Notes under the pieces: model-generated
What the model was told of the DNA's origin: nothing
Database searches by the model: none
Seen by the model: the letters and a program-made list of their open reading frames with translations, nothing else
Shown: piece after piece, positions 1 to 9,930 of the stretch
Layout: each line of letters starts with the position of its first letter
Numbering within the stretch: the stretch's first letter is position 1
Position numbers and translations under genes: made by a program
From: a virus
Lineage: Duplodnaviria; Heunggongvirae; Uroviricota; Caudoviricetes
DNA length: 9,930 bases
Reading direction: 5' to 3' (one strand)
IMG/VR virus record: IMGVR_UViG_2681813273_000007
Location: 1-9,930 of that record

Positions 1-10
1 ATATCACTAT

Positions 11-39
11 TTACTTTTAAAAATAACAGTGCTATTAAT
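11..39 (+). promoter_or_regulatory. Candidate sigma70 promoter for the cro-like gene (-35 TTACTT 11-16, 17-bp spacer, -10 TATTAA 34-39)
   Basis: Hexamers read directly from the sequence upstream of the first ORF; the divergent repressor side is outside the window. No operator could be defined. Confidence 0.25.
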
Positions 40-72
40 TATGCATTGGTAACACATCACATAGGGCGGATT

Positions 73-336
73 ATGAATCTTGGAGAATATTTGCATCATT
101 TTCATATAACCCAGAGTTCATTTGCTGAGATTGTTGGCGCATCCCAAGGGATGGTCAGCCACGTTATAACGGGGCGTGCAAAACTTACAGGAGAAAAAAT
201 ATTACGTTGGTGTGAAGCAACGGGATGGGTGGTGACCCCACATGAGATTGACAGTAAAACCTACCCCAACCCAACTGACGGCTTGCCTGCTGAGTTTCAG
301 GCTAACACACAACCATCGGCGGGGGTTGATTCATGA
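73..336 (+). CDS. ydaS: Cro-like HTH DNA-binding protein, YdaS family (ATG at 73; the ORF track starts at an upstream TTG at 46)
   Basis: Helix-turn-helix signature SSFAEIVGASQGMVSHVITGRAKLTGEKILRW; small size; stop overlaps the start of the next gene (ATGA at 333-336), as in ydaS-ydaT pairs of Rac-like prophages. Family assignment from memory. Confidence 0.6.
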   Translation: MNLGEYLHHFHITQSSFAEIVGASQGMVSHVITGRAKLTGEKILRWCEATGWVVTPHEIDSKTYPNPTDGLPAEFQANTQPSAGVDS

Positions 337-758
337 AAATCAAGCATGAACACATCCGCATGGCGATGAAAGCCTGGGCGCATCCGGACGGTGAAAAAGT
401 TCCGGCAGCTGAAATAACCAGGGTTTATTTCGAACTGGGAATGACGTTTCCGGTTCTGCATAACGACAGCAAGCACAACACGCTTTATCTCAACACCCAA
501 AAGATTTTCCGTTGGCTGGATAAAGACACCCCTGACGCTGTTGAAAAAATTCAGGCGTTGTTACCTGCGATCGAAAGGGCAATGCCACCTCCGCTGGTGG
601 CTCGAATGCGCAGCCACAGTTCAGCTTATTTTCGGGAACTGGTGGAGACGCATGAACGACTGGTGAGAGACGCTGATGATTTTGTCGCAGTGGCAATCGC
701 CGGTTTCAATCAGATGAACCGTGGTGGCCCGGCAGGAAATGCTGTGGCAGTACATTGA
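333..758 (+). CDS. ydaT: YdaT-like protein (CII-like regulator of Rac-type prophages)
   Basis: 141-aa ORF starting MKIKHEH, translationally coupled to the upstream cro-like gene; position and size match the YdaS/YdaT pair. Family assignment from memory of the YdaT N-terminus. Confidence 0.55.
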   Translation: MKIKHEHIRMAMKAWAHPDGEKVPAAEITRVYFELGMTFPVLHNDSKHNTLYLNTQKIFRWLDKDTPDAVEKIQALLPAIERAMPPPLVARMRSHSSAYFRELVETHERLVRDADDFVAVAIAGFNQMNRGGPAGNAVAVH

Positions 759-829
759 CTGACAATAGCCATATCGAATCGCTCCCGGCAACTCGTGAGT
801 AAAAAGATTCGGTATCAGAAGAGGTGAGT

Positions 830-1894
830 ATGGCTAACGCCTGGCTCAGATTATGGCATGACATGCCAAATGACCCTAAGTGGCGAACAATTGCCAGGGT
901 GTCAGGGCAGCCAATTGCAACAGTGATGGCAGTGTATATCCACCTCCTGGTGAGCGCGTCACGAAATGTCACGCGAGGTCACATTGATGTCACGACAGAA
1001 GATTTGGCAAGTGCGCTCGACGTGACAGAAGAGGTAATTGATTCAATTTTGCAGACGATGCAGGGGCGGGTACTTGATGGTGATTTAATCACTGGATGGG
1101 AAAAACGCCAGGTGCTTAAAGAGGACAACGGCAATATTTCGCAAACCGCAAAATCTCCTGCAGAGCGCAAGAGGGCGCAGCGAGAGAGGGAAAGAAAGCG
1201 GGAACAAAATGGCGATTGTCACGGCGCGTCACGAAATGTCACGCACATGTCACGACGAGTCACGACAGATACAGATAAAGATACAGATAAAGAAGATCAA
1301 AACACTATGGTCCATGGCGTAAAAAACGCCACGAACCAGGCAGGGGATGTTCAGACCGTCAATCCTGGTCAGCCAGCAGGCTCGACACCGGAAGCCGATT
1401 CAGCGTATGCGCTGAAAGCCGATTCGGGCGCTGTGCAGCAGGTGATGACCGCAAGGCCGGAGCAATCACTCCAACTGCAGCAGCCTGAAGCCGATTCCGC
1501 CATTCAGCGGGAAGCCGATCGGGTAGCCCCGGAAAACACCGGGCAGCCTGTGGGACGAGTGGATTATCCGGATGTGTTCGAACAGGTCTGGCGGGAATAC
1601 CCGTTGCGTGCCGGGGCAAACCCGAAGAAATCCGCATTCAGTGCCTGGAAGGCCAGATTGCGCGAGGGGGTGCCACCAGAGACCATGCTGGATGGTGTGA
1701 GGCGTTACGCGAGATACCTGGCGGCGACCGGGAAAGCGGGAACGGAATTTGTTCAGCGAGCGACGACGTTTTTTGGGCCGGACCGGAATTTTGAAAACCC
1801 CTGGTTGCTCCCGGTAAGCGGCACGAACAACCAGCGTTGTGTGAATCATATTTCTGAACCGGATACCGAAATTCCGCCGGGATTCAGGGGGTGA
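830..1894 (+). CDS. Phage replisome organizer (lambda O analogue) with DnaT-like C-terminal domain; ATG 830 preferred, GTG 824 also possible
   Basis: RBS GAGGTG at 821-826; C-terminus ...VNHISEPDTEIPPGFRG resembles the C-terminus of E. coli DnaT as I recall it; gene sits immediately upstream of a DnaC-like gene; central region is low-complexity and repeat-encoded. Confidence 0.7.
   Translation: MANAWLRLWHDMPNDPKWRTIARVSGQPIATVMAVYIHLLVSASRNVTRGHIDVTTEDLASALDVTEEVIDSILQTMQGRVLDGDLITGWEKRQVLKEDNGNISQTAKSPAERKRAQRERERKREQNGDCHGASRNVTHMSRRVTTDTDKDTDKEDQNTMVHGVKNATNQAGDVQTVNPGQPAGSTPEADSAYALKADSGAVQQVMTARPEQSLQLQQPEADSAIQREADRVAPENTGQPVGRVDYPDVFEQVWREYPLRAGANPKKSAFSAWKARLREGVPPETMLDGVRRYARYLAATGKAGTEFVQRATTFFGPDRNFENPWLLPVSGTNNQRCVNHISEPDTEIPPGFRG
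954..1292 (+). repeat. Iteron-like repeats inside the organizer gene: GTCACG at 958, 968, 978 (GTCACA), 989 and again at 1218, 1228, 1238, 1249, 1259; a 21-bp direct repeat at 954-974 and 1224-1244; tandem ATACAGATAAAG x2 at 1269-1292
   Basis: Counted directly; spacing within each cluster is 10, 10, 11 (and 10) bp, about one helical turn; an inverted copy CGTGAC lies at 1020-1025; AT-rich tract follows the second cluster. Confidence 0.55.
1391..1534 (+). repeat. Four degenerate 24-bp repeats beginning GAAGCCGATTC (1391, 1415, 1487, 1511) encoding EADS/KADS/EADS/EADR peptide repeats
   Basis: Counted directly in the linker region of the organizer gene. Confidence 0.5.
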
Positions 1895-1900
1895 TGTGGC

Positions 1901-2647
1901 ATGAAAAACATTGCGGCAGCCGGGGTTCTTGAACGTATTCACAGACTTGCACCACAGGGGGCGGTTCCACCGTACCGGACGGTGGAGGAGTGGCGGGAAT
2001 GGCAACTTGCTGAAGGACGAAAACGCAGCGAGGAGATTAACCGCCAGAATCGCCAGTTGCGGGTGGAAAAAATCCTGAATCGTTCGGGCATCCAGCCTCT
2101 GCACAGCAAATGCTCGTTTGCGAATTATCAGGTGCAGAACGACGGGCAAAAATACGCGCTGAGCCAGGCCAAATCCATAGCTGACGAACTGATGACCGGG
2201 TGCACGAATTTTGTGTTCAGCGGTAAAACCGGCACCGGGAAAAATCACCTTGCAGCGGCGATGGGTAACCGGCTGATGGCGAAGGGGCGCAGCGTGATTA
2301 TCGTCACCGAGTCTGATGTCATGAGCGTGTTGCATGACAGCTACGACAACGGCAAATCCGGTGAAAAATTTTTACAGGAGCTTTGCGGGGTTGATTTGCT
2401 GGTCCTGGATGAAATAGGCATTCAGCGGGAGACGAAAAACGAGCAGGTGGTATTGCACCAGATAATTGATCGCCGGACAGCATCACTGTGCAGTGTCGGG
2501 ATGTTAACAAACCTGAATCATGCCGCAATGAGCACGCTTCTTGGTGAGAGGATTATGGACCGCATGACCATGAACGGTTGTCGGTGGGTGACGTTTAACT
2601 GGGATAGCTGGCGTTCAAATGTCAGCTTTCCGGGAGTTGTGAAGTAA
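1901..2647 (+). CDS. DnaC-like replicative helicase loader (phage P analogue, AAA+ ATPase)
   Basis: Walker A FSGKTGTGKNHLAAA and Walker B LLVLDEIG; overall strong resemblance to host DnaC as recalled; start 7 nt after the stop of the DnaT-domain gene. Confidence 0.85.
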   Translation: MKNIAAAGVLERIHRLAPQGAVPPYRTVEEWREWQLAEGRKRSEEINRQNRQLRVEKILNRSGIQPLHSKCSFANYQVQNDGQKYALSQAKSIADELMTGCTNFVFSGKTGTGKNHLAAAMGNRLMAKGRSVIIVTESDVMSVLHDSYDNGKSGEKFLQELCGVDLLVLDEIGIQRETKNEQVVLHQIIDRRTASLCSVGMLTNLNHAAMSTLLGERIMDRMTMNGCRWVTFNWDSWRSNVSFPGVVK

Positions 2648-2668
2648 TTTTTGTTGGAGGATGTTTTA

Positions 2669-3394
2669 ATGGAAACTGTATTTGACGCACTGAAAGCACT
2701 GAAAAGAGCCTCTTCACATGTGGTGGCGTCCCGCCTTGGAATCAGCCGTGAAGATGCGGTCAACGAACTGTGGAAACTGAAGCGCCGTGGTGAAGCGGAT
2801 AACAAGGGTTCGATGTGGTGGCTGATTCAGGCTGGTGAAAGTGAACCAGTGTCACCGGTACCGAAAGTGACAGCGCAAATGCTGACTGAGGCGATTGAAC
2901 AACATGGCCCACAAACGGCGGATGAGCTGGCACTGATGTTCGGGATTACCTCCCGCCGGGCGAATTCATCGCTGGCCATGGCAATCAGCAAAGGGCGTCT
3001 GATTCGCGTGAATCAGGGCGGTAAATTTCGGTACTGCATACCGGGCGCTGATTTACCGGCAGAGCCGAAAGCCGCATCCATAGCGGAAACGGATGGTAAA
3101 GTCTTTCCTCAGCCAGCAGGTGTTGCGTTACCGGTACAGGAAGCTGCAACACAGGAAGAAATTAAAACAGAAACTGTGGCGGACATTGTGCAGTCGTTGC
3201 CATCGTTCACCGAAACGCAAGCGGATGACCTGGTTTTACCATCGCTGCATATGGCAAACCGCGAACTGCGTCGGGCGAAAAGTCATGTCCAGAAGTGGGA
3301 GCGTGTCTGCGCCGCGTTGCGGGAGCTGAACAAGCACCGGGATATTGTTCGACAGATTGTCGATTCCTCCGGTCGTATTGTGTCGGAAAAGTGA
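2669..3394 (+). CDS. Hypothetical prophage protein, 241 aa, two winged-helix-like segments and a charged C-terminal region (ORF track starts at TTG 2651; ATG 2669 has GGAGG 8 nt upstream)
   Basis: Long ORF with a good RBS; no family recognised. It has no counterpart between the DnaC-like and Ren-like genes of the second module. Confidence 0.5.
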
Positions 3395-3409
3395 TTGCCG
3401 GGGGCGCTT

Positions 3410-3649
3410 ATGGCAAAAGTATTTACACAGGAAGAGCGGGAAAAAATTAAGGGGCAGGTTGTTGAACTCGTACGCCAGAGTGGGCGCGAGACGTTACGAC
3501 AACTGGAAGCTAAAACCGGGGCGACAAGATATTTAATAAGCGTTCTCGCCAGAGAGCTGGTTGCCAGTGGGGATGTATACAACTCTGGCTACGGGTTATT
3601 CCCGTCTGAACAGGCTCGTAAGGACTGGCAAAACGCCCGCAAAAAACTC
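3410..3649 (+). pseudogene. ren: 5' part of a Ren-like gene (module I), interrupted after codon 80; the reading frame runs on into IS600 sequence to a stop at 3697
   Basis: Encodes MAKVFTQEEREK...QNARKKL, collinear with the intact 140-aa paralogue at 6359-6781; homology ends exactly where the IS end begins. Ren assignment from memory of the lambda Ren C-terminus (see 6359-6781). Confidence 0.55.
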
Positions 3650-3693
3650 ATGAGGTGTACTGGCAATAGCGGACACTACCATTTGTTCTTTTT

Positions 3694-4512
3694 TTAAGCA
3701 GCCATCTGATGATATTTTTCCCTGAAGGCTGCCGGGGAGATATTCCCCAGACGAGAGTGACGACGCTGACGATTGTAGAAAATCTCAATGTATTCCCGTA
3801 TTACTGAGATGGCTTCATCCCGGTTATTAAAACGATAGTGGCTCAGGCTCTCATTTTTCAGCGTTCCCCAGAAGCTTTCCATCGGAGCGTTGTCGTAACA
3901 GTTACCTTTACGCGACATTGATGTTTTCAGACCAGACTGCTCCTGTATGACCCGGTAATCGTATGCGCAGTACTGTGAACCTCGATCAGAGTGGTGGATT
4001 AGCCCGGCAGGTGGGCGCTGGCTCCTGAGCGCCATAAACAGGGCTTTACCTGTCAGCTCTTTTGTCATGCGCTCTCCCATGGCGTAGCCGACAATTTCGC
4101 ACGTATAAACATCTTTGATGCCAGCGAGGTACAACCATCCCTCCTGTGTGGCAACATACGTCAGGTCCGCCACCCAGACCTGATTTGGTGCTGTAGGAGC
4201 GAACGTCTGGTTCAGCAGATTTGGCGCAACTGGCAGATTGTGGTTCGAGTTCGTAGTCGCTCTGAACTTGCGTTTCTGCTTACAGCGTAGCCTTAGCTCC
4301 TTACGAAGACGTGCCAGTCGGTCACGACCAACGATGATGCCATTCTCTGCCAGCTCCGTCTGGAGCCGCCGGGTTCCATATGTTTCGCGAGTGCGGATAT
4401 GTGCCACCTTAATCTCCAGTTTTAGCCGCTCATCACTTTGTTTTCTGTCTGAGGGTTCATGCTGTACCCAGTTGTAATAACCGCTCCTGGATACACCAAA
4501 TACCTGACACAT
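3694..4512 (-). CDS. IS3-family transposase OrfB (DDE catalytic domain); the true OrfAB product is made by -1 frameshifting near 4592-4599, so the OrfB frame extends upstream of 4512
   Basis: 272-aa ORF from the first in-frame Met; integrase-like core; overlaps orfA in the -1 frame. Confidence 0.9.
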   Translation of the reverse strand: MCQVFGVSRSGYYNWVQHEPSDRKQSDERLKLEIKVAHIRTRETYGTRRLQTELAENGIIVGRDRLARLRKELRLRCKQKRKFRATTNSNHNLPVAPNLLNQTFAPTAPNQVWVADLTYVATQEGWLYLAGIKDVYTCEIVGYAMGERMTKELTGKALFMALRSQRPPAGLIHHSDRGSQYCAYDYRVIQEQSGLKTSMSRKGNCYDNAPMESFWGTLKNESLSHYRFNNRDEAISVIREYIEIFYNRQRRHSRLGNISPAAFREKYHQMAA

Positions 4513-4547
4513 CGCTTCAATGGGAAATTGTTGTCGCCATTGTTCGA

Positions 4548-4850
4548 TTAACGCGTATTTTTCAGCGACTCCTGTGCAAAATACGCTGTTGCTTTTTTTA
4601 ATATATCTCGCTCAAGGCGAGCTTCATTTAACGCCTTACGCAGTTGCAGAATTTCAGATTCCAGTTCAGCCACCGTGCGGGAACCAGGAGTACCGAGCCC
4701 TTTTCTGGCGGCGGTAACCCATTGTCCTAAAGTGCCTTCAGGAAGAGATAATCGGGAAGCGCCTTCACTGATCGAAAGTTGATTTTCAAGAACCGTTCTG
4801 ACAGCTTCGGCTTTGAACTCTTTAGAGTAACGTTGGGTTTTTCTGCTCAT
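4548..4850 (-). CDS. IS3-family transposase OrfA (HTH, leucine-zipper part)
   Basis: 100-aa ORF MSRKTQRYSKEFKAEAV... with an AAGGAG RBS; the A7G slippery motif (reverse complement of 4592-4599) lies near its 3' end. Confidence 0.9.
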   Translation of the reverse strand: MSRKTQRYSKEFKAEAVRTVLENQLSISEGASRLSLPEGTLGQWVTAARKGLGTPGSRTVAELESEILQLRKALNEARLERDILKKATAYFAQESLKNTR

Positions 4851-4914
4851 TATTAGCTCCTTCTGATGCCATTCTATTTCAGGAAGGAGTGTCCGTTAAA
4901 CTCAGGCTACCTCA

Positions 4915-5591
4915 GGTTATTCGCTTCTGGGCATGGGCGGATCAACAAATGATAGACGGTAATGCAGATTGTAACGCTCGCGGCGTTACAAAAAGTGCAA
5001 TAGATCGCATCACTTTTATGTCTGGTTTTGCTGATGCGTTAATTCAGGTTGGATGGCTGGTCGAAAATGACGGAGGGCTTTCTCTACCTAACTTTGAACG
5101 TCATAACGGAAAAAGCTCTAAAAAAAACGGGCGGTTACAAACGAGCGAGTAACAAAAATACGCGAACTGAAACGAAAAGGTAACGCTGCCAGCGTTACAC
5201 AAACGGATCAAAAAGCGTTACCAGAGGAAGAGGAAGAGGAAGATCTAAATACTGATCTCCCCCTCGCCAAAAACGAGCGTCTAAAAAATTCGAGCCGGAG
5301 GCTATTGAGCTGCCCGATTGGTTGCCGGAAACACTCTGGCATGAGTGGGTCCGGTTCAGACAGGCATTGCGAAAACCGATTCGAACGGAGCAGGGCGCTA
5401 ACGGGGCGATACGGGAACTGGAAAAATTCCGTCAGCAGGGTTTTACACCTGAGCAGGTGATTCGACACAGCATCGCCAATGAATACCAGGGCCTGTTCGC
5501 GCCGAAAGGTGTTCGGCCTGAGACGTTGCTCCGACAGGTTAACACCGTCTCGTTGCCGGACAGTGCGATCCCGCCAGGCTTCAGGGGGTAA
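4915..5591 (+). pseudogene. 5'-truncated, frameshifted replisome-organizer/DnaT-domain gene (module II)
   Basis: Begins abruptly at the IS end; three reading frames must be joined (switches inside A8 at 5120-5127 and A6 at 5283-5288) to obtain one protein ending ...VNTVSLPDSAIPPGFRG, the same C-terminal motif as the module I gene. Confidence 0.7.
4959..5221 (+). repeat. GTAACGC-type repeats in the module II organizer gene: 19-bp palindromes GTAACGC-N5-GCGTTAC at 4971-4989 and 5180-5198, half-sites at 4959-4965 (GTAATGC) and 5215-5221
   Basis: Counted directly; they occupy the same relative part of the gene as the GTCACG clusters of module I. Confidence 0.45.
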
Positions 5592-5597
5592 CGGACC

Positions 5598-6344
5598 ATG
5601 AAAAATATTGCGACAGGCGGCGTTCTGGAACGCATCCGCCGACTGACCCCGCCACATGTAACCGCCCCATTCAGAACGGTAGCGGAGTGGCGCGAGTGGC
5701 AACTTGCTGAAGGCCAGAAACGTAGCGAGGAGATCAACCGCCTGAATCGCCAGTTGCGGGTGGAAAAAATTCTGAATCGCTCAGGCATCCAGCCGTTGCA
5801 CCGTAAATGCTCGTTTGCGAATTACCAGGTGCAGAACGACGGCCAGCGATACGCGTTAAGCCAGGCGAAATCCATCGCCGATGAACTGATGACCGGGTGT
5901 ACAAATTTTGCGTTCAGCGGAAAACCTGGTACCGGGAAGAATCACTTAGCGGCAGCTATCGGGAATCGCCTGCTGAAAGACGGTCAGACAGTGATTGTGG
6001 TTACCGTGGCTGATGTTATGAGCGCCCTGCACGCCAGCTATGACGACGGGCAGTCAGGCGAAAAATTTTTGCGGGAGCTGTGCGAAGTGGATCTGCTGGT
6101 TCTTGATGAAATTGGCATTCAGCGCGAGACGAAAAACGAGCAGGTGGTGCTGCACCAGATTGTTGATCGCCGGACAGCGTCGATGCGCAGCGTGGGGATG
6201 CTGACAAACCTGAACTATGAGGTGATGAAAACATTGCTCGGCGAGCGGGTGATGGATCGCATGGTCATGAACGGCGGGCGCTGGGTGAATTTTAACTGGG
6301 AGAGCTGGCGTCCGAATGTTAGCCATTCGAGGGTTGTTAAGTAG
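5598..6344 (+). CDS. DnaC-like replicative helicase loader, second copy (about 85 percent identical in protein to 1901-2647)
   Basis: Walker A FSGKPGTGKNHLAAA, Walker B LLVLDEIG; collinear with the first copy. Confidence 0.85.
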   Translation: MKNIATGGVLERIRRLTPPHVTAPFRTVAEWREWQLAEGQKRSEEINRLNRQLRVEKILNRSGIQPLHRKCSFANYQVQNDGQRYALSQAKSIADELMTGCTNFAFSGKPGTGKNHLAAAIGNRLLKDGQTVIVVTVADVMSALHASYDDGQSGEKFLRELCEVDLLVLDEIGIQRETKNEQVVLHQIVDRRTASMRSVGMLTNLNYEVMKTLLGERVMDRMVMNGGRWVNFNWESWRPNVSHSRVVK

Positions 6345-6358
6345 TTTCAGGAGGATTT

Positions 6359-6781
6359 ATGGCGAAACCTTTTACTCCCGAACAGCGGGAAGAACTGAAG
6401 ACGCGAATTGTGGAACTCGTGCATCAGGACGGTCGGGTCACGATTCGGCAGTTGTCAGATGAAACAGGTATCAGTCGTGCGTCTGTCGGTCGCTTATGCA
6501 TAGAACTGGTCGCAAGTGGTGATGTATATAATTCTGGCTACGGCTTATTCCCGTCTGAACAGGCTCGCAAGGACTGGCAAAGCGCCCGCAAAAAACTCTC
6601 GAGAGTAAAGGTGAGGAAACCGGTTGTTGTTGATCCGGACCTTATCTGGTCATTACCTGACGGAGAAATACGCCGCTACGACAGGCGCCTGAATATAATC
6701 TGTCGCGAGTGCCGGAAGAGCGAAGCTATGCAGCGTGTACTGGCTTTCTATCAGGGTAATTTTCAGGAGGCGATACTGTGA
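6359..6781 (+). CDS. ren: Ren-like protein (module II), intact, 140 aa
   Basis: Strong RBS AGGAGG at 6348-6353; N-terminal winged-HTH-like segment and a C-terminus ...ICRECRKSEAMQRVLAFYQG that matches lambda Ren (...KECRQSAAMKRVLAVYG) as I recall it; position after the P-like gene as in lambda. Confidence 0.5.
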   Translation: MAKPFTPEQREELKTRIVELVHQDGRVTIRQLSDETGISRASVGRLCIELVASGDVYNSGYGLFPSEQARKDWQSARKKLSRVKVRKPVVVDPDLIWSLPDGEIRRYDRRLNIICRECRKSEAMQRVLAFYQGNFQEAIL

Positions 6782-6838
6782 ATGAAATTAGCTATCAGGC
6801 TTCAATTACCGCTGGCATTCGCATCAAAGGAGAGGAGC

Positions 6839-6952
6839 ATGGAAATAAAACGATATTGCTTAACTCATCTTCTGGTTTTATTTCCGGTAAAAGAGGATGA
6901 CCCTCGTAATCAGGTTAATTTTCTTTATGAGCCATCGGAAAGACCATATTAG
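6839..6952 (+). pseudogene. Truncated 5' fragment (37 codons) of the small Cys/coiled-coil gene, module II allele
   Basis: MEIKRYCLTHLLVLFPVKEDDPRNQVNFLYEPSERPY then a stop at the junction; same RBS and start context as the intact gene at 7215. Confidence 0.45.
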
Positions 6953-7157
6953 GCAAAACGCCCGCAAAAAACTCTCGAGGGCAAAGCTGAAGAAACCATC
7001 TGTGGTTGATCCGGACCTTATCTGGTCATTACCGGACGGAGAAATACGCCGCTACGACAGACATCAGAACATAATCTGTCGCGAGTGCCGGAAGAGTGAA
7101 GTTATGCAGCGTGTACCGGCTTTCTATCAGGGTGATTTTCAGGAGGCGGTACTGTGA
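6952..7157 (+). pseudogene. ren: 3' part of the split module I Ren-like gene
   Basis: Encodes QNARKKLSRAKLKKPSVVDPDLIWSLPDGEIRRYDRHQNIICRECRKSEVMQRVPAFYQGDFQEAVL; its first 23 bp (6952-6974) are identical to 3627-3649, the last bases of the 5' part before IS600. Confidence 0.6.
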
Positions 7158-7214
7158 GTGAAATTAGCTATCAGGCTTCAATTACCGCTGGCATTCGCAT
7201 CAAAGGAGAGGAGC

Positions 7215-7571
7215 ATGGAAATAAAACCAGAAGATGAGTTAAGCAATATTGTTTTATTTCCGGTAAAAGAGGATAACCCTCGTAATCAGGTTAATTTTCT
7301 TTATGAGCCATCGGAAAGACCATATTGCCATCACGCTTCTGTCCGGGTTGACGAAAAAGAGCGTCAGGTCCGCTGTAAAATTTGCGGTGCAGTTGTGGAG
7401 CCATTTGACTGGATGCTCTCTGTGGCGAAAAGAGAAACCAGACTGGCAGATGATGTAAGGCTCTTGCGCCAGGAGGAGCGGGAAAGGCGAAAAAATATAG
7501 AAAAGCTAATCCAGATTGAGCGTAATGCGAAAGCGCGGATACGCAGGGTGACAAAATATAGCCCCGAATAA
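7215..7571 (+). CDS. Hypothetical small protein, 118 aa, Cys/His cluster (C-H-H ... C-x2-C) followed by a charged coiled-coil-like C-terminus
   Basis: Strong RBS AGGAG at 7203-7210 with ATG at 7215; the ORF track begins at an upstream in-frame codon (7158), which I do not prefer. Confidence 0.5.
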   Translation: MEIKPEDELSNIVLFPVKEDNPRNQVNFLYEPSERPYCHHASVRVDEKERQVRCKICGAVVEPFDWMLSVAKRETRLADDVRLLRQEERERRKNIEKLIQIERNAKARIRRVTKYSPE

Positions 7572-7785
7572 TCAAGGTTATTTCTGGAAGTCAAGTCGTG
7601 AGTGATGAGGACTAACAAATACGGTGAACTCGATAAAGAGATTCAGGACGAACTGGAGGCCAGGAATGATTGACAAATCACCAAGTGAGTTCAGCTACAA
7701 AGATTTATTGTCATAACGGGTTATGAGATCGACTTGGTGCGTGATATTCTTCGGGCCAGTTTGCTATGCGCCACCATGAGATGTT

Positions 7786-8223
7786 ATGGCCCGCATGTTT
7801 GATACATTAGGATTTTACATTATGAATGTGCAACATTTTGATTTTTTTACAGATAATGAGTTTTCTAATCTGGAAAGATATCAAACTTGTAAAGCCATGG
7901 CCAAAGGTTATGCGGGCAATTACAAAACCGGGCAGTCAAGGTTGATGCATGCCCGCTCATACTGCTTCAGCATCGTAGCTGCATATTGGGATACACGGGT
8001 TGACGAAAAAGAGCGTCAGGTCCGCTGTAAAATCTGCGGTGCGGTTGTGGAGCCGTTTGACTGGATGCTCTCTGTGGCAAAAAGAGAAACCAGACTGGCA
8101 GATGATGTAAGGCTATTGCGCCAGGAGGAACAGGAAAGGCGGAGAAATATAGAAAAGCTGATACAGATTGAGCGTAACGCGAAAGCGCGGATACGCAGGG
8201 CGACAAAATCCAGAACTGAATAA
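7786..8223 (+). CDS. Hypothetical paralogue of the 118-aa protein: different N-terminal half, near-identical C-terminal 75 aa (alternative start ATG 7822 with AGGA 8 nt upstream)
   Basis: DNA 7996-8208 is about 95 percent identical to 7343-7555; upstream parts are unrelated. Confidence 0.45.
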   Translation: MARMFDTLGFYIMNVQHFDFFTDNEFSNLERYQTCKAMAKGYAGNYKTGQSRLMHARSYCFSIVAAYWDTRVDEKERQVRCKICGAVVEPFDWMLSVAKRETRLADDVRLLRQEEQERRRNIEKLIQIERNAKARIRRATKSRTE

Positions 8224-8370
8224 TTAAATTTAGCACTGTTAAAAATTTAATCCTTAACCGGAGGGATTTCTGCACCCTCAAATCATCAGGAGACCACCCG
8301 AAAGGGCGGGGAGCAGTCACACATCTGTTTCCGATAGCCCCGTTCTAATGCTACACTCTTTGATATTTTT

Positions 8371-9057
8371 ATGACCCCAATAAACATATTTATGACAGTT
8401 GCTGATTTCAAACGGCCCAAATTGGAGCTCCCAAACGGGGCAAACAAACTACTACTGCACTCTTGCTGTGCTCCATGTTCCGGTGAGGTGATGGAGGCGC
8501 TTCAGGCCTCGGGAATCGACTACACCATCTTTTTCTACAACCCGAACATTCATCCTCAGAAAGAGTATTTAATTCGTAAGGATGAGAATATTCGCTTTGC
8601 TGAACAACACGGCGTGCCGTTTATTGATGCTGATTACGACACAGACAACTGGTTTGAACGAGCCAAAGGAATGGAATGGGAGCCCGAACGAGGGATCCGT
8701 TGCACCATGTGTTTTGACATGCGTTTTGAGCGGACAGCGCTGTACGCCGCTGAAAATGGTTTCAGTGTGATCAGCAGTTCACTGGGCATTTCACGCTGGA
8801 AAAATATGCAGCAGGTTAACGACTGTGGGCGGCGAGCCGTCGCGCATTATCCGGGCATGGTGTACTGGGATTATAACTGGCGCAAGCAGGGCGGCTCGTC
8901 CCGTATGATTGAAATCAGCAAGCGCGAAAAATTCTATCAGCAGGAATATTGTGGCTGTGTGTATTCTCTGCGCGATACCAATCTACACCGCAAATCTCAG
9001 GGACGCCCTCTTATCAAAATTGGTCAACTCCACTACGGTAAAGAAGAGAAGGAGTGA
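8371..9057 (+). CDS. queH: QueH-like protein (DUF208 family, epoxyqueuosine reductase-like); start may be the internal ATG at 8392
   Basis: N-terminal [11 protein letters not shown] motif plus later Cys pairs (CTMC, CGC), which I recall as the DUF208/QueH signature; 228 aa is the expected size. Not verified by search. Confidence 0.55.
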
Positions 9058-9116
9058 TTTTATGGGGCACCTTTCTGATTGATTTCATATTGGCGAGGTA
9101 AGTAGAATGACTGCGG

Positions 9117-9284
9117 GTGCTTGAGGCTATCTGCTTCAGGCATGAACACCAAAAGGCAGATAGAGAAAAGCCCCAGTTAACATTACGCGTCCGGCAAGAC
9201 GCTTAACATTAATCTGAGGCCAATTTCATGCTTTGCACATGTAGGTTAGCCTCTTACATGCCGAAAGGCAAGGAGAAGCAGGCT
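9117..9284 (+). promoter_or_regulatory. Leader of the hok-family mRNA (predicted 5' folding elements)
   Basis: Sequence GCTTGAGGCTATCTGC...GCAGATAG forms an 8-bp stem (9127-9134 with 9156-9163) and resembles hok mRNA leaders as recalled; precise 5' end not determinable. Confidence 0.4.
9180..9260 (-). ncRNA. sok: Predicted sok-like antisense RNA overlapping the mok start region (position approximate)
   Basis: Inferred only from the conserved organisation of hok/sok loci; I could not define a convincing promoter or terminator on the minus strand. Confidence 0.25.
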
Positions 9285-9440
9285 ATGAAGCAGCAAAAGG
9301 CGATGTTAATCGCCCTGATCGTCATCTGTTTAACCGTCATAGTGACGGCACTGGTAACGAGGAAAGACCTCTGTGAGGTACGAATCCGAACCGGCCAGAC
9401 GGAGGTCGCTGTCTTCGTAGACTACGAATCCAGGAAGTAA
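9228..9440 (+). CDS. mok: Mok-like reading frame (in-frame N-terminal extension of hok)
   Basis: 70-aa ORF MLCTCRLASYMPKGKEKQA followed in frame by the Hok peptide, as in chromosomal mok/hok pairs. Confidence 0.55.
   Translation: MLCTCRLASYMPKGKEKQAMKQQKAMLIALIVICLTVIVTALVTRKDLCEVRIRTGQTEVAVFVDYESRK
9285..9440 (+). CDS. hok: Hok/Gef-family type I toxin, 51 aa, single transmembrane helix
   Basis: MKQQKAMLIALIVICLTVIVTALVTRKDLCEVRIRTGQTEVAVFVDYESRK is very close to HokC/HokD as recalled; AAGGAG RBS 10 nt upstream. Confidence 0.85.
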   Translation: MKQQKAMLIALIVICLTVIVTALVTRKDLCEVRIRTGQTEVAVFVDYESRK

Positions 9441-9517
9441 GAGTGACCGGGCGGGGAGCTGATCCCATCCCCGCCCACCTCTGATGTGTCAGGCATCCTC
9501 AACGCACCCGCACTTAA

Positions 9518-9560
9518 CCCGCCCATCGCTGTGATCTCTCAGCGTTTCGGCGGGTTTTTT
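9518..9560 (+). terminator. Candidate intrinsic terminator / hok mRNA 3' element (CCCGCC ... GGCGGG stem followed by T6)
   Basis: Stem arms at 9518-9523 and 9549-9554, T run 9555-9560; the loop is long (25 nt), so this is a weak call. A tighter hairpin GGGCGGGGA/TCCCCGCCC lies at 9450-9478. Confidence 0.4.
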
Positions 9561-9699
9561 GTTGTTTATTTCCGGTGAATTTGATTCGCGCACCTTCGCA
9601 GATAGAATCGACTCACTTAAGTAGCGCGCAGGGAGAAGAGGGATGGACCCCGAACAGGGGAGAGCTATTTATCTGGAAGGATTCTGAAGATGAAAATCG

Positions 9700-9930
9700 A
9701 AGAATTGCGTGAAATTTTTAGTGAAAATGGCCTCTATGCTGTGCGCGTTGAGAATGGAGCGATTGTCAGCCATTGCCGCATTAGATGTTTGCAATCTCAA
9801 CAAAGGAAGAGCGGTGCTGTGTTATTTTATTTTTGTAATGGACTTCTGACGGACGGTTTTATTTTGCGTGAGGACGAATTTGTCACATCATTACGGGTTT
9901 TGAAAGAGATAGGTTTTAAGGCTGGTTTTC
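9700..9930 (+). CDS. 5' part of an unrecognised gene running off the window end (MKIEELREIFSENGLYAVRVENGAIVSHCRIRCLQ...)
   Basis: Open frame of 77 codons from an ATG with AAGGA upstream and no stop before the window edge; absent from the ORF track because it is unterminated. Confidence 0.35.

Follow-up and report, generated by a model that had tools for sequence, protein, structure and literature searches.

A probable replication origin of phased hexamers inside the replisome-organizer gene of an Escherichia coli lambdoid prophage

The intragenic iteron origin is already known as a design from lambda and from Gram-positive phages. In lambda and the Shiga toxin (Stx) phages, gene O contains iterons and an AT-rich tract in its middle part, and additional iterons make the O protein longer; these iterons number four to six and are inverted-repeat units of roughly 19 bp (PMC7466680). 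In phage SPP1, the direct repeats bound by gp38 are part of gene 38 and adjoin an AT-rich unwinding element (PMC6316719); for TP901-1 ORF13 and Tuc2009 Rep2009, the bound direct repeats are likewise in the protein's own gene and act as ori (PMC8965321). Here we describe phased GTCACG hexamers within a replisome-organizer gene in a 9,930-nt stretch of a Caudoviricetes record (IMGVR_UViG_2681813273_000007, positions 1 to 9,930), hereafter called the window, the opening 2.7 kb of which form the early-right region of a lambdoid prophage of E. coli. From sequence comparison, we consider it very probable that this element is the replication origin of the prophage, located inside its own initiator gene.

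The hexamer is defined as GTCACR (GTCACG or GTCACA), and coordinates count along the window, on the plus strand unless stated. The features of the gene and of the proposed origin are:

830-1894, plus strand: replisome-organizer (initiator) gene, an open reading frame (ORF) of 354 amino acids (aa); phrog_3729 'replication initiation protein', 3e-250
830-1213, plus strand: coding sequence of the N-terminal domain (N-domain), aa 1-128, a presumed iteron-binding winged helix
958-994, plus strand: iteron cluster 1, with GTCACG at 958, 968 and 989 and GTCACA at 978, in steps of 10, 10 and 11 bp
1021-1026, minus strand: tenth, inverted copy (CGTGAC on the plus strand), 27 nt past cluster 1
1218-1264, plus strand: iteron cluster 2, five GTCACG at 1218, 1228, 1238, 1249 and 1259, in steps of 10, 10, 11 and 10 bp
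954-974 and 1224-1244, plus strand: exact 21-bp repeat GCGCGTCACGAAATGTCACGC, two iterons with their spacer
1265-1307, plus strand: A+T-rich, purine-rich tract with tandem AGATACAGATAA x2 at 1267-1290, encoding TDTDKDTDKEDQNTM
1299: left boundary of the segment common to genes with a different N-domain, where the match to locus L040 starts
1308-1338: inverted repeat TGGTCCATGGCG-TAAAAAA-CGCCACGAACCA, a 13-pair stem just right of the A-rich tract
1826-1891, plus strand: C-terminal 22 residues (..SEPDTEIPPGFRG), near-identical to the C-terminal tail of host DnaT

The lambda-type origins (lambda, 933W, P27) resemble this locus in several respects. They lie in the initiator gene where the DNA-binding N-half meets the loader-binding C-half, and their iterons are followed mid-gene by an AT-rich tract, as cluster 2 is here by the stretch of 72% A+T at 1265-1307. 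Extra iterons lengthen the protein in both, and specificity is exchanged as a module made up of the N-terminal half and its iterons, in lambda the corresponding half of O with ori-lambda, here the N-domain with both arrays and the tract. The site is also found in the early rightward operon past cro and cII. Unlike O, however, the organizer has no Phage_rep_O domain; its iterons are 6-bp cores in 10/11-bp direct repeats with no internal dyad symmetry instead of units of about 19 bp; it has two arrays, separated by about 230 bp, of which one falls in the coding sequence of the DNA-binding domain itself; and a DnaC-like ATPase takes the place of lambda P as partner. The analogy with the iterons of gene O, drawn by an earlier sequence-only reading of this DNA, thus holds in its logic and not in its parts, since the organizer is no O homologue and its iterons are of a different type.

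The Gram-positive organizers (SPP1 gp38/oriL, TP901-1 ORF13, Tuc2009 Rep2009, r1t ORF11) are a closer match than lambda. Direct repeats in the organizer's own gene adjoin an AT-rich element there too (PMC6316719; PMC8965321), a helicase loader or helicase gene lies directly downstream (DnaC-like here at 1901-2647, DnaB-like or P-like in relatives), and the alignment of the N-domain to TIGR01714 runs over the full length, while its model suggests a DnaD-like winged helix. In contrast, the similarity falls under every curated threshold, the hosts here are Proteobacteria, and the tail here is DnaT-like; SPP1 also has oriR, whereas no second site was found in the three whole phage genomes scanned here. 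Judging from these sequences, we file the organizer as a probable proteobacterial branch of the organizer-with-intragenic-origin design, with 6-bp cores, one-turn steps and a bipartite layout.

Other systems are more distant. Theta-plasmid iterons are 17-22 bp long and about two turns apart, their Rep_3 initiators have two winged helices, and DnaA boxes are usual. The iteron plasmids (RepA, pi, TrfA) share with our locus initiator-specific direct repeats beside an A+T-rich unwinding element, with sites and initiator co-varying, and differ from it in that here no Rep_3 match is found, the unit is 10/11 bp and no exact DnaA box occurs. The P4 ori/crr and the SaPI origins have short repeats (6-8 bp) in two separate sets used by one initiator; unlike the organizer, those initiators are primase-helicases or helicases, the sites are outside or after the gene, and there is no sequence relation. 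Host DnaT is similar to the organizer in the tail alone, the rest being unrelated in sequence. The Eru replication types of Stx phages were also considered and set aside: the papers on them give helicase/primase or O-like plus DnaB-like pairs, with iterons and the present module unmentioned.

Phased hexamer arrays and their conservation

A position scan confirmed the nine direct GTCACR copies in two clusters with 10-11-bp steps that the sequence-only reading had listed, and added the inverted tenth copy, missing from that list. The shared 21-mers claimed at 954-974 and 1224-1244 are identical and the flanks of the two copies differ. Tandem Repeats Finder reports cluster 2 as 1217-1267 (period 10 x 5.0) and places the AT-rich tandem repeat described behind it at 1267-1293, as a perfect 12-bp tandem (period 12 x 2.2, 100%). 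The peptide SRNVT, said to be encoded twice, is found at aa 44 and aa 134.

The whole window contains 14 GTCACR against 9.1 expected, a number equalled in 14 of 200 shuffles, so the count alone is ordinary. The phasing is not matched in this way: 7 pairs of neighbours stand 10/11 bp apart, and in 300 dinucleotide-preserving shuffles the best of all hexamers reached a mean of 1.0 and a maximum of 3. When synonymous codons were resampled 5000 times for the same protein, we obtained 1.13 copies (maximum 5) versus the 9 observed, and 0.08 phased pairs (maximum 3) versus 7. The hexamers fall in codon phases 3,1,2,1 in cluster 1 and 2,3,1,3,1 in cluster 2. As all three phases are used, the repeat is a feature of the DNA and not a peptide repeat, and the double SRNVT follows as a consequence of a periodicity that belongs to the DNA. 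Cluster 1 codes for aa 43-55 (ASRNVTRGHIDVT), covering the last part of helix 1 together with the loop after it, and cluster 2 for aa 130-145, inside a disordered linker.

Homologues were collected by a one-genome-per-species scan, which gave 33 loci from enterobacteria (Escherichia, Shigella, Serratia, Rahnella, Pantoea, Erwinia, Enterobacter) and from Pseudomonas, Gilvimarinus, Marinobacter, Aquitalea, Chromobacterium, Bordetella, Acidovorax and Sphingomonas. Phage records were added (Aeromonas pAEv1818, Pseudomonas phi1, a spring-water podovirus, Ralstonia Firinga). A first IMG/VR scan returned identical E. coli copies only and a scan with P0227 returned nothing; IMG/VR added 54 further distinct genes. 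The classified set comprises 72 distinct N-domains from genomes and IMG/VR contigs, representing prophages and phages of gamma-, beta- and alphaproteobacteria, and the two arrays of each gene were assigned to a hexamer class independently. In Pseudomonas phage phi1 (KT887557; L035 2001-2900), the organizer gene, which carries 4 + 4 GTCACG iterons, is not annotated at all, and several sister records have the gene split into two 'hypothetical proteins'.

Phased hexamers (10/11 bp) are present at both gene positions in 65 of the 72 N-domains, at gene offsets that in nearly all homologues are ~129-165 and ~380-450; six have them in neither array and one in a single array. Four classes were found among the 65 genes: GTCACG (43), CGAACG (15), GTAACG (6) and GCAACG (1). 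Both clusters of a gene were of one class in 65/65, and genes with differing classes number 0/72. The GTAACG class comes from Pantoea, Enterobacter, Marinobacter and Sphingomonas elements, the CGAACG class is a large environmental group, and GCAACG belongs to phage Firinga. Even the inverted copy takes part in the switch, reading CGTTAC in a GTAACG-class locus (L019); its GTGAC is kept in 14/14 genes with Val at that place, the Val being always GTG. Cluster 2 has 3-6 copies in homologues, conserved at 88-99% vs 35-60% for the flanking linker. The layout of two clusters and an A-rich tract spans elements of E. coli to those of Pseudomonas, Bordetella, Ralstonia and Sphingomonas. As for the members with no hexamer, four (L023, L025, L030, L147) keep an (AGATAA)n tract, and two (L031, L032) have CTACGTAG-type repeats and a longer linker.

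For synonymous sites we used 18 GTCACG-class genes with a median nucleotide identity of 69% over the first 300 nt. Third-codon positions are 98% conserved inside the four hexamers vs 56% elsewhere (Mann-Whitney p 2e-5), the opposite of the free synonymous variation by which the sequence-only reading proposed to be judged. Where two sequences agree in the amino acid, they also agree in the codon in 96% of pairs for iteron codons vs 42% elsewhere (p 1e-5). In a 16-gene set, Val is GTC in 16/16 twice, Thr is ACG in 16/16 twice, Gly is GGT in 16/16 and His is CAC in 16/16, and invariant residues a few codons off use 3-5 different codons. Such frozen synonymous sites inside the hexamers favour a function at the DNA level.

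A reading in which the DNA has no function of its own, and selection on the protein or replication slippage within a low-complexity linker produced the pattern, would fit the location of cluster 2 and the DK tract in a disordered, repeat-prone region and the copy number that differs among homologues. We find it hardly credible: it is contradicted by the codon resampling and goes against the three reading phases and the frozen synonymous sites, the same hexamer occurs in a structured domain and in the linker, and the pattern survives across proteobacterial classes whose proteins share 38-70% identity. The gap between clusters, 227-231 bp in most GTCACG genes, could be taken for a helical register; it was not used as evidence because it is set by protein-domain length and by how array ends are called.

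The A+T-rich tract and the exchanged segment

The tract at 1265-1307 is presumed to be a DNA-unwinding element. It is 72% A+T and 72% purine, vs 45% A+T for the whole organizer gene, and it is the GC minimum of this gene (0.38). In 16 of the 18 aligned GTCACG-class genes, AGAT starts 2 nt past the last iteron of cluster 2, usually continuing as AGATAAAGATAAAGA or as a variant such as the AGATACAGATAA of the window; the exceptions are L004, with an insertion ahead of the tract, and L035, with TGTATAAAGAT. A purine-rich tract, mostly 60-80% A+T, follows the iterons in all hexamer classes. A GATC (Dam) site is found at 1292-1295, the right edge of the A-rich tract, and AGATCT occurs there in many homologues.

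The inverted repeat at 1308-1338 may be an accessory element, a candidate from its sequence that we leave unexplained. Many homologues have a G+C-rich hairpin at the matching relative place, with differing stems and, in three cases, an identical loop; lambda has a palindrome at the matching relative place as well. The hairpin is found ~20-60 nt past the A-rich tract in L003, L009, L016, L007, L012, L014, L017, L019 and L035. Three betaproteobacterial loci share the loop TCACTWCGTTC on compensating stems (CCTACC/GGTAGG, CCCACC/GGTGGG and CCTCCTCT/AGAGGAGG), and others have CCCCCC..GGGGG.

The hexamers could be organizer sites for control only (an autorepression roadblock, copy-number handcuffing, or exclusion of related phages), with unwinding and initiation elsewhere, since cluster 1 is located 5' in the gene, 300 bp away from the A-rich tract, and a protein bound there would hinder transcription. 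Plasmid iterons are used for initiation and control alike. The extra iterons of Stx phages bind weakly and yet matter (PMC7466680). Control without initiation nevertheless seems unlikely to us: cluster 2 is joined to the tract at a fixed 2 nt in 16/18 genes, which is the classic arrangement of iterons and unwinding element, and the whole genomes of phages Tritos, pAEv1818 and Firinga have no hexamer cluster beyond these two.

The genes around the organizer are:

46-336, plus strand: Cro-like helix-turn-helix (HTH) gene, upstream
333-758, plus strand: CII/YdaT-like gene, upstream
1901-2647, plus strand: DnaC-like helicase loader, partner gene (NF009043 2.4e-150; DnaC NF005931 1.9e-88; PF01695)

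Phage Tritos has the order cI, cro, CII-like gene, organizer. Among the homologues, the arrays persist against a changing background, in which the upstream CII-like gene, the organizer's C-terminal half and the gene that follows (DnaC-like, DnaB-like or 'P') all vary. In L001, L039 (phage Tritos) and L040, a DUF977 gene comes immediately after the organizer and the DnaC-like loader is missing, which makes the loader optional in the organizer module.

Locus L040 (E. coli GCA_038071335, 2501-3610) is a natural chimera. Nucleotides 470-1063 of its gene correspond to 1299-1892 of the window with 96% DNA identity, and there is no match leftward. Its N-domain is unrelated and GTCACR is absent; instead, AAGGGGCTT is repeated at 11-bp phasing in two clusters 256 bp apart, and a purine tract follows. 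This swap, together with the varying neighbours, marks the N-domain, both arrays and the tract as one unit of exchange, and the exchangeable module of origin and N-domain ends at 1299.

Two further kinds of site were weighed against this genetic context. The repeats could belong to another protein, namely a host factor or the upstream CII/YdaT-like activator, which might fire an antisense promoter. In lambda, the tetramers recognised by CII are direct repeats one turn apart within coding DNA, and the sole promoter-like match in 1-2700 is on the minus strand at 1242-1215, within cluster 2. One such match is fewer than the 2.6 expected by chance and is not evidence, a YdaT-like gene is not upstream at most GTCACG-array loci, and a host factor would leave unexplained four hexamer classes that track the N-domain even within Enterobacterales, so we regard this as very unlikely. 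Nor do we give much weight to a centromere-like or packaging site, at which a partition or terminase protein would bind; we judge it highly improbable. The R1 parC does consist of two clusters of phased direct repeats, but there are no partition genes nearby, every lineage has the site within its replication gene regardless of terminase or lifestyle, and sites of those kinds come without an adjacent A-rich tract.

The organizer protein and the proposed mechanism

Close homologues of the organizer carry the NCBI name 'phage replisome organizer', and no Pfam family matches the 354-aa protein at E <= 0.01. It consists of a predicted N-terminal winged-helix domain, a disordered linker of 110 residues and a C-terminal DnaD/DnaT-like part. 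The full-length AlphaFold model, with a predicted local distance difference test (pLDDT) score of 50.6, was too poor for use. The model of the N-domain is a predicted winged helix, nearest to the N-terminal domain of DnaD (DnaD-NTD); a Foldseek search against the PDB gave no significant match, only generic winged-helix regulators, and a profile sequence search of the PDB with the N-domain found no match. TIGR01714 aligns aa 5-125 to model positions 1-119 of 119 with 15.4 bits vs a cut-off of 49.8 (E 0.015), PF09681 does not match the organizer, and the PHROG 'replisome organizer' families match weakly (2.4e-5 and 4.2e-4). A Rac-type YdaU (DUF1376), suspected from the YdaS/YdaT/DnaC-like neighbours, was dropped, as the organizer has no Pfam match.

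The tail SEPDTEIPPGFRG corresponds to SEPDSQIPPGFRG of DnaT, and phmmer against the PDB matched it to 6aep, 2ru8 and 9zbt_D at residues 159-179. NF002770 (DnaT) aligns aa 331-354 only, with 18.1 bits vs a cut-off of 201, so the organizer is not a full-length DnaT. The C-terminal domain of DnaT forms filaments on single-stranded DNA that mark the place for DnaB loading (PMC13377028).

Both iteron clusters code for loop or disordered linker, where homologues carry indels. Insertions at the iteron places come in steps of 7 residues (NVT[TCHGVSR]RGH), that is, 21 bp or two iterons. The N-domain is also found fused to an HNH nuclease (PF01844/PF14279) in proteins of ~180-190 aa (P0154, P0172, P0173, P0185, P0209, P0210, P0217), and of the four that were aligned, P0154, P0172 and P0185 have an SRNVTRGH-type loop and P0210 has NANERGRTH. 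From their sequences, these fusions might be origin-directed nucleases.

We suggest the following mechanism. The N-terminal winged helix would bind the GTCACG hexamers, and the 10-11-bp steps would align the bound N-domains on one face of the helix, forming two arrays ~230 bp apart, one with four direct copies and one inverted copy, the other with five direct copies. The array beside the (AGATAA)n tract would stress torsionally, or directly open, the A+T-rich, strand-asymmetric stretch. The C-terminal DnaD/DnaT-like part would then hold the single strand, and host DnaB would be recruited via the adjacent DnaC-like loader. The upstream array with its inverted copy probably strengthens or regulates the complex, whether through cooperative looping or through autoregulation; what cluster 1 does is the least certain step. 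Rightward early transcription would pass through the origin, as in lambda.

The sequence-only reading placed the origin of this module inside the organizer gene, and the phasing, the frozen synonymous sites, the concerted change of class and the link to the N-domain support this placement. Several points weigh against it. Six of the 72 family members lack a phased hexamer in either array. The homologues have common ancestors, and their counts cannot be taken as independent events; the arrays, being inside or next to the N-domain coding sequence, are partly co-inherited with it by physical linkage. In 830-1894 there is no exact DnaA box, with one-mismatch matches at 1047, 1097 and 1840, and no other host-factor sites were seen in the origin region. 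The promoter and terminator scan gave counts at or below chance, with no promoter signal beyond it. We found no experiments on the organizer family in the open-access literature, and no paper describing this origin in open-access text, where an older description in a subscription journal is possible. The prophage of the window may also be decayed, with an insertion sequence (IS) and a broken second replication module downstream, and the element may be intact in sequence yet idle in it.

There is a small chance that the arrays double as code for the specificity residues of the initiator itself. The loop coded by cluster 1 (aa 43-55) is the most class-specific part of the protein, being SRNVTRGH in the GTCACG class, NATERGRTQ in the CGAACG class and GNAGVTQSNA in the GTAACG class. 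Wherever a hexamer falls in the frame xGT-[C/A]AC, the single base by which GTAACG departs from GTCACG also replaces His by Asn. In an Erwinia/Pantoea/Enterobacter subgroup, a hexamer copy falls in the predicted recognition helix, which has ERHV in a GTCACG gene and ERNV/VSNV in two GTAACG genes. If such residues contact the hexamer, one base change would alter site and reader together, which would explain why the switches are always concerted. Mutual-information specificity columns, which pointed to the loop and the basic helix at aa 100-120, were discarded since they are confounded by shared descent.

The rest of the window, distribution and meaning

Downstream of the first replication module, the window contains:

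3694-4850, minus strand: IS3-family insertion sequence, with orfB (rve) at 3694-4512 and orfA (HTH_Tnp_1) at 4548-4850, separating two replication modules
4889-5591: second, decayed organizer remnant, 5'-truncated and frameshifted, ending ..AIPPGFRG
5598-6344: second DnaC-like gene, 81% protein identity to the first
6359-6781: DUF977 gene, its end spanned by a tandem duplication; a second partial DUF977 ORF is at 6897-7157
6576-7326: tandem duplication, a 376-bp unit in 2 copies, 90% identical, yielding the partial DUF977 ORF
8371-9057: QueH-like epoxyqueuosine reductase gene
9115-9290 (sok RNA) and 9228-9440 (Hok): hok/sok toxin-antitoxin locus, after the QueH-like gene

A close E. coli match has IS2 annotated at the place of the IS3-family element. 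Two inverted repeats GTAACG-N7-CGTTAC (4971-4989 and 5180-5198) are found in the organizer remnant, with additional copies at 5149 and 5216 and, at 5222-5243, the purine tract CAGAGGAAGAGGAAGAGGAAGA. The decayed module is thus alike to the first in plan, with two repeat sites and a purine tract, and differs from it in repeat type. At 5560-5588 the remnant likewise ends in a DnaT-like tail.

The 361-bp origin segment is found in 1715 of 5426 complete E. coli genomes, and the N-domain family has ~4400 representatives at 50% identity in public data. Among phage records, 25 of 50,697 have this family, with no model phage among the carriers. Seven deposited Escherichia phages carry the organizer gene at ~97% DNA identity.

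Knowledge of the origin and its specificity classes would help in predicting which prophages can still replicate, and likewise where co-resident prophages compete for or titrate the initiators of one another. It would also show how compatible phage-derived replicons can be built. The four hexamer classes and the L040 chimera form a natural panel for the study of how initiator and site specificity change together within one stretch of DNA.

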